Shown: positions 52,609 to 54,671 of the stretch, piece by piece
How the letters are laid out: the number at the start of each line of letters is the position of its first letter
Position numbering within the stretch: the first letter of the stretch is position 1
Position numbers and translations under genes: made by a program
Notes under the pieces: model-generated
Database searches by the model: none
What the model saw: the letters and a program-made list of their open reading frames with translations, nothing else
What the model was told of the DNA's origin: nothing
Source: an uncultured Pseudomonadota bacterium
Lineage (GTDB): Bacteria > Babelota > Babeliae > Babelales > Vermiphilaceae
Assembly: GCA_964495945.1 (NCBI GenBank)
Contig: CAZBWL010000001.1
Coordinates: 181,584-245,583, forward strand
DNA length: 64,000 bases
Reading direction: 5' to 3'

Positions 52609-52667
52609 CGCAAAGTATGTTTCGTAGATCTCTTTCGGAACAACGTTTATAAGCGTTCCGTAGCAAT

Positions 52668-52697
52668 AAAAAACCCCGATTTATCGGGGTTTTTTAT
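52668..52697 (+). terminator. rho-independent terminator
   Basis: aaaaaCCCCGAT-tt-ATCGGGGtttttt. Confidence 0.65.
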
Positions 52698-52813
52698 TGC
52701 TTAAATAAAGCTGTGTGCTGTTATTAAACTATTATAGGTCGCAAAACTATTGAATTAATCGAATTCAATATGCTATTTTTAAGGAGATAGGAAGGTTTTT
52801 ATGGGGAGAGTAT

Positions 52814-53311
52814 ATGAAGAAGTTTCAAGCTTTACTTTTTATTATTGTTATGTTTCCGGTCCATAATATAGAGCCAAATCAATATTGGAACAAAACGAAA
52901 GCAAAAGCTCAAGATGCGTGGCAGTGGGTCAAAAAAAATCCATATAAGGCCGGAATGATTGCTACAGGGTCAGCTCTTGCTGGTGCAGGGATAGCTTCTG
53001 GTGTGCAGGCTGGGTCTCGCTACAAAAATCTTGTTAATGCCATGCAAAAGCTTGATATAGCGTTGAGCGAATCATTGATGGAAAATGTGGATGCTGATGC
53101 AACGTTATCAACTCTACAAAGCGCGCCAGTAGACTTTAGTACAAATGCGAAGACTGGGTGGAATTTTCTTTTGGCAAATCAAAGTTCATTACAAGAAGCA
53201 GGGCAATTGGCAAAAACTATTGCGAATTATCTCAGCTCTTCAAATATTGATGAGCTGATGATTGCCCGCATAGACGCAGTGCTATCGGAAATTAGATCTT
53301 TTTATAAATAG
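52814..53311 (+). CDS. hypothetical secreted/membrane protein, distant member of the 53335/54072 family
   Basis: 165 aa. After a signal-like N-terminus comes AQDAWQWVKKNPYKAGMIATGSALAGAGIASGVQAGSRYK. This parallels ARAYQWMKAHPGAALGTALAVVAGATAVGAGMRSSK in the next two genes. Confidence 0.5.
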   Translation: MKKFQALLFIIVMFPVHNIEPNQYWNKTKAKAQDAWQWVKKNPYKAGMIATGSALAGAGIASGVQAGSRYKNLVNAMQKLDIALSESLMENVDADATLSTLQSAPVDFSTNAKTGWNFLLANQSSLQEAGQLAKTIANYLSSSNIDELMIARIDAVLSEIRSFYK

Positions 53312-53334
53312 TGAGTTTTGAATAGGAGAGGTGT

Positions 53335-53640
53335 ATGAAGAAAATGAATTATGTTGTAATGGGTATTTTTGTGAGCATGCAGATTGGAATTGATGCTGCG
53401 CAGCCATCGTATTTACAGCGAGCAGGCCAGTATGCAGGCCAGTCGTATAAGGCGAGTAGAGAGCAGCTTGCAAGGGCATATCAATGGATGAAGGCACACC
53501 CAGGAGCAGCGCTTGGCACAGCCCTTGCGGTTGTAGCAGGTGCGACTGCTGTTGGAGCCGGAATGCGTTCTAGCAAATCAGTTCCGATGCAGGGGCAGAC
53601 TATGCCGAATGAACTTCCAATAGGTGGAGCAGGAGATCAA
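53335..53640 (+). repeat. duplicated N-terminal coding module (copy 1)
   Basis: Colinear with 54072..54377 at an offset of 737 nt. In my manual alignment of 53377..53640 I count about 12 mismatches in 264 nt. Similarity stops abruptly after ...gatcaa. Confidence 0.85.
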
Positions 53641-54012
53641 ATAACTTTTTATGATTCGCCTGAAAAGCCAATTGCGCTTATTAATGAAGATTCTATCAAT
53701 AGAGCGATTCAGCAATTTTATACAAAAAATCCTAAGGTTATGAAACAAGATCTTATTGATGGAAGCATCATTGAAGCTTCTGATTTTATTCAGAGTGTTA
53801 GCAATAGGTTTCCTGGTATACGAATAAATTTTGATGTTGTAAATGATCTTGTTCAGTATGATTTTAATTCTTTTAATTCTTTTATAAAAAGGGTTGCGAC
53901 TCTTTTAGATCAATGGAAAGACGATAGCGATAAACAGATAGAAATTCAAAATCTTCTATCTAAATTAGCTGTAGTTTTAGATCGCATAGATAATATTATA
54001 AAAAATGCTTAG
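53335..54012 (+). CDS. hypothetical protein with conserved N-terminal module and unique C-terminal domain
   Basis: 225 aa with a signal-like N-terminus, a helical segment and a Gly/Ala-rich TM. The C-terminal ~120 aa is unrelated to the neighbour's. Confidence 0.55.
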   Translation: MKKMNYVVMGIFVSMQIGIDAAQPSYLQRAGQYAGQSYKASREQLARAYQWMKAHPGAALGTALAVVAGATAVGAGMRSSKSVPMQGQTMPNELPIGGAGDQITFYDSPEKPIALINEDSINRAIQQFYTKNPKVMKQDLIDGSIIEASDFIQSVSNRFPGIRINFDVVNDLVQYDFNSFNSFIKRVATLLDQWKDDSDKQIEIQNLLSKLAVVLDRIDNIIKNA

Positions 54013-54071
54013 GGCAAAAATAGTATTTTTTGTGTTTTATAGAGTGATTAATAGTTAATGAGGGAGAGTAT

Positions 54072-54377
54072 ATGAAGAAGGTCAATTATATAGTATTGAG
54101 TATTTTTGTGGGTATGCAGATTGGAATTGATGCTGCGCAGCCATCGTATTTACAGCGAGTAGGCCAGTATGCAGGGCAGGCATATAAGGCGAGTAGAGAG
54201 CAGCTTGCAAGAGCATACCAGTGGATGAAGGCACACCCAGGAGCAGCGCTTGGCACAGCCCTTGCGGTTGTAGCAGGTGCGACTGCTGTTGGAGCCGGAA
54301 TGCGTTCTAGCAAATCAGTTCCGATGCAGGGGCAGACTATGCCAAATGAAATTCCAATAGGAGGAGCTGAAGATCAA
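54072..54377 (+). repeat. duplicated N-terminal coding module (copy 2)
   Basis: See copy 1. A run of more than 130 nt is identical (tggatgaaggcacaccc...gcagactatgcc). Confidence 0.85.
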
Positions 54378-54623
54378 ACAATTCAAACAATTCAAAATTC
54401 GAATGAAGAATTTATTCAGTATTTTAAAGAAGAATATCCCGATCAAATGAAAGATTTTAACATAGAAGCCTTAGATAAAAATAAAAAATTAGATTTAATG
54501 ATGGCTATAGAATTAGCTAAAGAGGAACCTAAATTTTATGAAATCATAAACTATTATACATCTCAAGACGGTAAGCCTGATGAGTATATTGGCGCAGGAA
54601 TAGTTGATGCTTTTTATGAATAA
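54072..54623 (+). CDS. hypothetical protein with conserved N-terminal module and unique C-terminal domain
   Basis: 183 aa. The first ~100 aa are nearly identical to 53335..54012, and the C-terminal ~80 aa are unrelated. Confidence 0.55.
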   Translation: MKKVNYIVLSIFVGMQIGIDAAQPSYLQRVGQYAGQAYKASREQLARAYQWMKAHPGAALGTALAVVAGATAVGAGMRSSKSVPMQGQTMPNEIPIGGAEDQTIQTIQNSNEEFIQYFKEEYPDQMKDFNIEALDKNKKLDLMMAIELAKEEPKFYEIINYYTSQDGKPDEYIGAGIVDAFYE

Positions 54624-54644: not shown

Positions 54645-54671
54645 AAAGCCCCGCATATTGCGGGGCTTTTT
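54645..54671. terminator. bidirectional rho-independent terminator
   Basis: aaaGCCCCGC-atatt-GCGGGGCttttt, between convergent genes. Confidence 0.65.

Follow-up and report, generated by a model that had tools for sequence, protein, structure and literature searches.

Three neighbouring genes, which we call A, B and C, lie on the same strand at about 52.6-54.7 kb of the 64,000-nt stretch of DNA analyzed here (the window). In the reading that we hold with moderate confidence, they encode exported paralogs with a glycine-zipper anchor and fast-turning tails, the front parts of B and C having been homogenised by gene conversion. The genome they come from was assembled into 9 contigs totalling 1.12 Mb, with 38.9% GC. 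A (52814..53311, 165 aa), B (53335..54012, 225 aa) and C (54072..54623, 183 aa) are open reading frames (ORFs) that would be co-transcribed. They would belong to a family of small, exported membrane proteins that has no name yet and occurs across the order of Dependentiae (TM6) to which this genome belongs. The conserved unit of the family would consist of a cleavable Sec-type signal peptide, a basic helix of ~30 residues leading to the motif W-x-K-x-[N/H]-P, and a Gly/Ala-zipper helix placed right after the proline. Such a module would take the protein to the Sec translocon, anchor it in the membrane and pack it with like helices, and the part after the anchor would be a lineage-specific tail whose turnover is too fast for relatives to be detectable. 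B and C would stem from a tandem duplication, the first 300 nt of which were later homogenised by repeated conversion in nested tracts of different ages. With the same anchor, they could co-assemble and yet carry different tails.

The shared module occupies codons 1-102 of both B (53335..53640) and C (54072..54377). In B, it comprises a signal peptide with a putative cleavage site between IDA and AQ, the helix YKASREQLARAYQ, the motif WMKAHP (nt 53485-53502), the glycine-zipper helix GAALGTALAVVAGATAVGAG directly after it (nt 53503-53565), and a linker ending in GGAGDQ. A hydropathy scan of B and C places the leader at residues 1 to ~22 and a single helix at residues 54-78, with ~35 residues between them. 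Gene A has a signal-like peptide (residues 1 to ~21) and a helix, then WVKKNP at residues 38-43 (nt 52925-52942) and a Gly/Ala hydrophobic helix (residues 46-67, nt 52949-53014); its tail has 96 aa and an ordinary GC content. The three proteins all begin with MKK and a hydrophobic stretch, and their anchor helix ends at residue 67-77 of 165-225. An earlier note on this DNA, made from the letters alone, had described the module as a signal-like peptide, a helix and a Gly/Ala-zipper helix, and this anatomy can be read in all three genes. It had also seen a diverged version of the module in the upstream gene, which the alignments bear out: the module of A matches that of B and C with z = 5.5-6, a Smith-Waterman score reached by 0 of 2000 shuffles (AWQWVKKNP...G.ALA against AYQWMKAHP...G.ALA). 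Among five members from the genus, the N-terminal parts are similar in all pairs (z = 3-10).

The modules of B and C are much closer to each other, and the way in which their differences are distributed is informative. The repeat finder reports them as a direct repeat (53331-53630 and 54068-54367) with 93% identity. Counted codon by codon, there are 21 differences in 306 nt (93.1% identity), of which 12 fall in the best 264 nt (95.5%), very close to the 95% previously noted for that span. The longest identical run had been put at more than 130 nt; it measures 122 nt (53485-53606, identical to 54222-54343) and spans the motif and the anchor helix and reaches into the linker. Identity starts ~10 nt 5' of the ATG, at the ribosome-binding site (RBS), and ends at codon 102 in GGA(G/E)DQ, i.e., it stops as abruptly as described, at the codons given then as GG(A/E)(G/E)DQ. 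By the Nei-Gojobori method, the synonymous divergence (dS) of the module is 0.18 and its ratio of non-synonymous to synonymous divergence (dN/dS) is 0.23 overall. Yet, dS is 0 over the 31 synonymous sites of codons 51-90 versus ~0.3 in the rest of the module, and nothing is alignable past codon 102. An identical run of 122 nt among 21 uniformly placed differences has a probability of 0.0003. A single gene pair thus holds three age classes (dS of 0, dS of ~0.3, and unalignable), which indicates that the two modules were kept alike by repeated gene conversion with differing tract ends, and not by selection alone: neither one duplication event nor purifying selection at the protein level would leave three nested classes. 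The segment 53485..53606 (partner 54222-54343) is the presumable youngest conversion tract.

The same pattern recurs in other genomes. In genome G065, from another family of the order, an adjacent gene pair is ~93% identical over ~213 nt that begin at the ATG and end shortly after WVKKNP, and is then divergent; a second, independent pair of neighbours in the same genome has ~120 nt at ~93% identity from the ATG before it diverges. In protein alignments of the members in G243 and G115, the fronts are conserved through the anchor and the tails are divergent and partly riddled with indels. Taken with the values of dS and the probability above, this recurrence upholds the suggestion made earlier that recombination maintains the likeness of the modules. 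We also found the same 19 nt, GGGAGAGTATATGAAGAAG, before A (52804-52822, covering the RBS and the first three codons, Met-Lys-Lys) and before C (54062-54080). B differs there, and C matches B from codon 4 onwards. This is suggestive of a small mosaic, or else may reflect plain constraint on the site; the match is too short and too constrained to be given weight.

The tails of B (53641..54012, 123 aa) and C (54378..54623, 81 aa) are another matter. In tail-only Smith-Waterman comparisons, all A/B/C pairs score at shuffle level (z between -1 and +1.3), and blastn and tblastx revealed no similarity between tails at the DNA level or out of frame, in line with the earlier statement that the C-terminal ~120 and ~80 aa are unalignable. 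Tail motifs picked by eye (IQQFYTKNPKVMKQ against IQYFKEEYPDQMKD, and the final SFYK against AFYE) do not rise above shuffle level and were discarded. Comparisons within the genus gave no pair of tails with significant similarity, except for the linker common to B and C; the housekeeping neighbours there share 75-80% identity. Searching the own genome by tblastn and blastn returned no second copy, orphan cassette or donor of any tail. Tail-only HMMER searches over 261 genomes of the order matched 4, 2 and 0 other genomes, at chance level and inside large unrelated ORFs, and a word-based search of 5.8 billion proteins found no tail kin. Hence, the orphan C-terminal cassettes envisaged in the earlier note appeared in none of these three datasets. 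Sequence searches of Pfam, NCBIfam, PHROGs, PADLOC and the PDB revealed no toxin or other known domain in the tails. Neither B nor C is followed by an immunity-type ORF: B is followed after 59 nt by C, and C by a terminator and a convergent formamidase gene. Single-sequence AlphaFold2 models have a mean predicted local distance difference test (pLDDT) of 38.5 for B and 37.1 for C, that of B being mostly helical, with low confidence. The idea of a constant anchoring module with swappable heads is therefore only half retained: the module is constant and its C-termini are unrelated, but exchange of heads or cassettes, the absence of which the earlier note itself had counted against its idea, was not found.

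Module and tail also differ in base composition. The module of B and C had been described as visibly richer in GC than its flanks, and it lies in the top 0.5% of the 100-codon windows of the genome for GC; that of B has 50% GC, with 0.40 GC at third codon positions (GC3). The tails lie in the bottom 0.2-0.8% of the genome for both GC and GC3 (28.7% and 0.17 in B, 27.2% and 0.185 in C; the genome mean of GC3 is 0.315 +/- 0.06), with values close to those of intergenic DNA. Gene A has no such jump from module to tail. The drop of GC3 within one reading frame could be explained by GC-biased conversion of the module or by a young origin of the tails from AT-rich DNA. The tails remain open over 123 and 81 codons in DNA of 27-29% GC, and their codon score in frame 0 is 0.24-0.25, to be compared with a gene mean of 0.21 +/- 0.10, the other frames scoring far lower. 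Given these long open frames in AT-rich DNA and a codon score like that of genes, the tails of B and C are in all likelihood real coding sequence.

To place A, B and C among their relatives, we ran a profile of their modules (A3) over the 261 genomes of the order. Distant members were found as weak matches sharing one anatomy: a signal peptide, a basic helix to W-x-K-x-[N/H]-P (sometimes with K in the last position), a Gly/Ala helix and a tail of any length. A second profile (A4), made of a 48-residue core from 22 seed sequences and applied at E <= 0.01 per genome, has matches in 123 of the 261 genomes and 84 of 145 genera, as compared with 0-4 genomes for tail queries of similar length. A, B and C score 55-57 bits on this profile, but are among its 22 seeds. 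Independent members likewise carry a signal-like N-terminus, a basic helix ending in the motif and a Gly/Ala-rich hydrophobic helix. The signal-like N-terminus, which is not part of A4, is present in 39 of the 46 non-training matches, against 43% of the ORFs of the own genome (Fisher P = 2e-8). The architecture of constant anchor and variable tail thus seems to be general in this order. One early match (L008 in G003) proved to be a chance match within a large Ala-rich ORF.

Many members come in tandem arrays of 3-10 genes: ten in G062, eight in two clusters in G065, four in G243, and three each in G115, G158 and G231. The array of G062 (L046 55-5439, G062:C5) is the largest seen and consists of ten back-to-back genes on the minus strand, each of 111-174 aa and each with a signal peptide, W.K.[NH][PK] and a hydrophobic helix. 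Other members are solitary. A fourth member in the own genome, outside the window (C1:722421-723131, minus strand), has a signal peptide, AQAWNFAKENK, a Gly/Ala helix and a 132-aa tail; it stands directly after an SbcC-like gene. A linkage to such a gene was also seen in G202 (L022 1387-1953), but the orientations are opposite and we draw no conclusion from it. The closest sister genome has one member directly after the tgt gene and one elsewhere. In other words, the further copies of the module that the earlier note thought worth seeking exist, both in this genome and in many others of the order. Some proteins of 155-193 aa contain the unit of motif and helix twice (L013 1135-1716, L051 1432-1935, L052 1503-1970, L031 1408-1950), and are predicted to form a two-helix hairpin after the signal peptide.

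Outside the genomes of the order, we found almost nothing. The word-based search of 5.8 billion proteins returned only the proteins of the window itself. An exhaustive search of 1.84 billion representative proteins with a profile of the A/B/C modules gave three matches besides A, B and C. One of them (P0005, on a 1.7-kb metagenome contig) has 295 aa without a signal peptide, three tandem units (..YKWVKRHPGKSTGLGALGVGAGYGG..) and a long acidic C-terminal tail; it is probably a real relative, and the only credible one outside these genomes. The two others are spurious: one is a eukaryote-like protein of repetitive sequence, and the other an NTPase whose helical repeats contain WLKAHPE. The family is not represented by a model in Pfam or NCBIfam, and we found no description in the full-text literature of a family defined by W-x-K-x-[N/H]-P and a glycine zipper. 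The family thus appears to be undescribed so far.

What these proteins do in the membrane can be discussed from their sequences. We infer export through Sec with cleavage of the leader (e.g., between IDA and AQ in B and C) and a single membrane helix, which could pack with like helices through its GxxxGxxxAxxxG face. A cleaved signal peptide followed by a stop-transfer helix would by default leave the N-terminus outside and the C-terminus inside, so that the tails would lie in the bacterial cytoplasm. For a helix as marginal as this one, full translocation and a fate outside the cell are possible as well. The proteins may have a role in dealing with the host.

The closest known likeness of the core is to the DUF883 tail anchors of YqjD, ElaB and YgaM. 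Comparison by hhalign of A4 with Escherichia coli YqjD gave a probability of 89% (E = 2e-6), with W.KKNP aligned to YVRENPW. In both groups a helix leads into a conserved, helix-breaking proline, and a hydrophobic helix rich in glycine comes directly after it (WMKAHP-GAALGTALAVVAGATAVGAG in B and C, WVKKNP-YKAGMIATGSALAGAGIASG in A); an aromatic residue flanks the proline. The conserved proline, conserved glycines and helix-dependent dimerisation are documented for YqjD-type proteins (Njenga et al., bioRxiv 10.1101/2024.08.16.608256). The differences are also marked. Unlike the DUF883 tail-anchor proteins, A, B and C begin with a signal peptide; their Trp precedes the proline, whereas it follows it in YqjD; they have no terminal RR or RK; their anchor is not C-terminal, since 96-147 residues follow it, including 81-123 past the linker that B and C have in common; and the expected orientation in the membrane is opposite. 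None of the three has any Pfam match at E <= 1, hence none to DUF883_C (PF19029) or to the N-terminal domain of DUF883, and the own genome has no match to PF19029 at E <= 10. Sub-threshold matches to DUF883_C exist for two of the 22 family cores and one full-length member (best E = 0.0019-0.0042, 17 bits for a cut-off of 27). Given the lack of a match above threshold, the signal peptide, the position of the anchor and the absence of RR, we do not treat the family as part of DUF883; the core is perhaps a distant relative or an analogue of its tail anchor.

Several alternatives must be weighed against exported anchor paralogs homogenised by conversion. One recent partial duplication, in which a 300-nt front was copied once ahead of a pre-existing or newly opened frame with no exchange since, is an unlikely account of B and C. 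It would accommodate an identity bounded on both sides within ~320 nt, the absence of any trace of a common tail origin, and tails whose very low, near-intergenic GC and GC3 would fit young coding sequence, but a single event is not expected to leave three age classes (dS of 0, ~0.3 and saturated; P = 0.0003), and the sharp 5' identity with other end points in the independent pairs of G065 speaks for a recurrent process. We are even less inclined to regard the tails as non-functional, i.e., as decaying or mis-called ORFs behind a short real membrane peptide. Their lack of relatives, extreme AT content and low-confidence models are what one would find in that case, but from base composition the chance of an open frame in DNA of 28% GC is estimated at ~2 in 100,000 for 123 codons and ~1 in 1,000 for 81 codons, and the codon score of frame 0 equals that of real genes, far above the other frames; this explanation is scarcely credible. 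A polymorphic effector, toxin or variable-surface system, in which a constant delivery module is recombined with exchangeable C-terminal heads, was the logic proposed in the earlier note, and the sharp breakpoint between shared module and unrelated tails invites it, as do the tandem arrays of many relatives, in which the front parts are conserved and the rear parts vary. Each defining test that we ran failed, however: no tail has a known domain, the gaps after B and C (59 nt and a terminator) hold no small immunity-type ORF, and there is no orphan cassette or second copy of a tail in the datasets searched. Besides, the Sec leader is the only delivery signal and the tails would be inside the cell under the default topology. 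We find such a system improbable, and the cassette-based variable surface proteins also suggested there fare no better, as no cassettes were found and the tails would, by default, lie in the cytoplasm of the bacterium.

The two remaining alternatives concern the place and task of the proteins. Fast-evolving tails are typical of host-facing proteins, and the family could consist of secreted effectors of host membranes: the helix would escape arrest in the inner membrane, the protein would leave the cell (e.g., in outer-membrane vesicles) and insert in a host organelle, and the tail would point to the host cytosol. The anchor helix falls short of that of YqjD in hydrophobicity, and two relatives have ankyrin-repeat genes in the syntenic slot, one with a signal-like N-terminus. 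The tail anchors of ElaB and YqjD do insert into the yeast mitochondrial outer membrane (PMC5525287), and a cultured member of the Dependentiae sheds vesicles and replicates wrapped by a host mitochondrion (PMC6561590). Against this, the route across the outer membrane is only postulated, the helix of A, B and C is not C-terminal and hence no tail anchor, and the link to DUF883 is weak; we consider this scenario rather doubtful. A broader version of it is just as speculative in our eyes. In that version, the unit would be a clade-wide insertion module derived from DUF883, carrying short and rapidly renewed tails to host organelle membranes, possibly the mitochondrial outer membrane; conversion would keep the inserting and oligomerising part constant, and the host-facing tails would be free to change or to arise from AT-rich DNA. 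Alternatively, the proteins might be derived ribosome-tethering (hibernation) factors of the DUF883 type at the bacterial inner membrane, like YqjD, ElaB and YgaM. The hhalign probability over the core of helix, proline and zipper is in keeping with this, and in some members (L022, L016, L055) the anchor is near the C-terminus and preceded by a long helical stretch, a layout that DUF883 proteins also have. But with the signal peptide, the helix before the anchor would end up outside the cytoplasm and far from any ribosome, the scores are below the Pfam threshold with no DUF883_C match in the genome, a C-terminal RR or RK is missing, and 96-147 residues follow the anchor helix in A, B and C. 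This makes the tethering function very improbable.

Some observations weigh against the reading that we prefer, exported zipper-anchored paralogs with converted fronts. For cleavage and orientation, we relied solely on sequence rules. The helix is marginal, with a Kyte-Doolittle mean over 19 residues of 1.34 in A and 1.67 in B and C, versus 1.92 in YqjD, and may not act as a stop-transfer anchor. (A position-independent sum on the Hessa scale is positive even for YqjD, and was not used against membrane insertion.) One partial duplication with uneven constraint could mimic part of the conversion pattern. Because A4 is a short profile with a compositional component, some of the 123 genomes may be false matches, and what we call fast turnover of tails could in part be gain and loss of genes. 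Finally, the link to DUF883 comes from one profile-sequence comparison, the Pfam threshold is not reached, and DUF883_C finds nothing in the genome.

Comparison with other known systems helps to situate the family. Like the polymorphic toxins CdiA, Rhs and MafB, the paralogs have a conserved N-terminus that switches abruptly to unrelated C-termini, with recombination involved; unlike them, A, B and C have no toxin domain, cognate immunity gene or orphan cassettes, are only 165-225 aa long and carry only a Sec leader. The Inc proteins of Chlamydia, an intracellular bacterium, are also small membrane proteins that evolve fast and are specific to their lineage; they often occur in clusters and are recognised by a hydrophobic signature rather than by sequence, and their variable tails face the host. 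Their defining traits are a bilobed hydrophobic domain, in which a short loop joins two helices, and type III secretion, whereas A, B and C have a Sec leader and a single helix ~35 residues further on, without a bilobed domain in the hydropathy scan. In families under concerted evolution, neighbouring copies are partly homogenised as here, the difference being that conversion of the kind seen in B and C is confined to the 5' module. A parallel within the Dependentiae lies in the arrays of Sec-signal genes without known relatives (ORFans) in Chromulinavorax (PMC6561590) and Babela (PMC4378268), which are likewise signal-bearing, in tandem and in a reduced, host-dependent genome. In Chromulinavorax destructans, 44% of the genes have signal peptides, and this subset is enriched in ORFans (PMC6561590).

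Dependentiae are widespread and almost uncultured parasites of protists, with large secretomes made mostly of proteins without known relatives. A short signature that unites many small ORFans, found in roughly every second genome sampled from the order, provides a handle for their annotation. The module is compact and lends itself to tests of whether it mediates export and membrane anchoring, packs with like helices and possibly targets organelles. B and C are a clean, small case of conversion confined to one functional module, and the jump from the top to the bottom percentiles of base composition in one frame offers material on new protein tails in reduced genomes. We rate the novelty as a variant of known glycine-zipper anchors combined with concerted evolution in tandem secretome families of Dependentiae. 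Should this be an ordinary family of inner-membrane proteins, its interest would be modest.

The three genes look like one co-transcribed operon bounded by terminators, since hairpins flank the unit and neither the terminator scan nor direct reading revealed one between the genes. The gaps are of 23 nt between A and B and 59 nt between B and C, and a GGAG-type RBS precedes each gene. Upstream, a hairpin with a T-run (52666..52696, plus strand, AAAACCCCGA-TTTA-TCGGGGTTTTTT) lies 3' of a MIP (aquaporin-type) channel gene; it is absent from the list of the consensus terminator scan and was recognised by direct reading. Downstream, the scan identified an intrinsic-terminator-like hairpin (54645..54669, plus strand) with a stem of 11 pairs and a T-run, between C and the convergent gene. 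According to Pfam, the 5' neighbours are a Vut_1 transporter, a queuine tRNA-ribosyltransferase and the MIP channel, and the 3' neighbour is an acetamidase/formamidase gene. An exact look-up of gene B in public assemblies gave no match. In the two relatives mentioned above, the slot between MIP and formamidase has ankyrin-repeat genes instead of A, B and C (L010 6762-7343, plus strand; L012 6729-7961, minus strand), the signal-like N-terminus being reported for that of L010 only. This position looks like a hot spot of exported proteins that are specific to a lineage.

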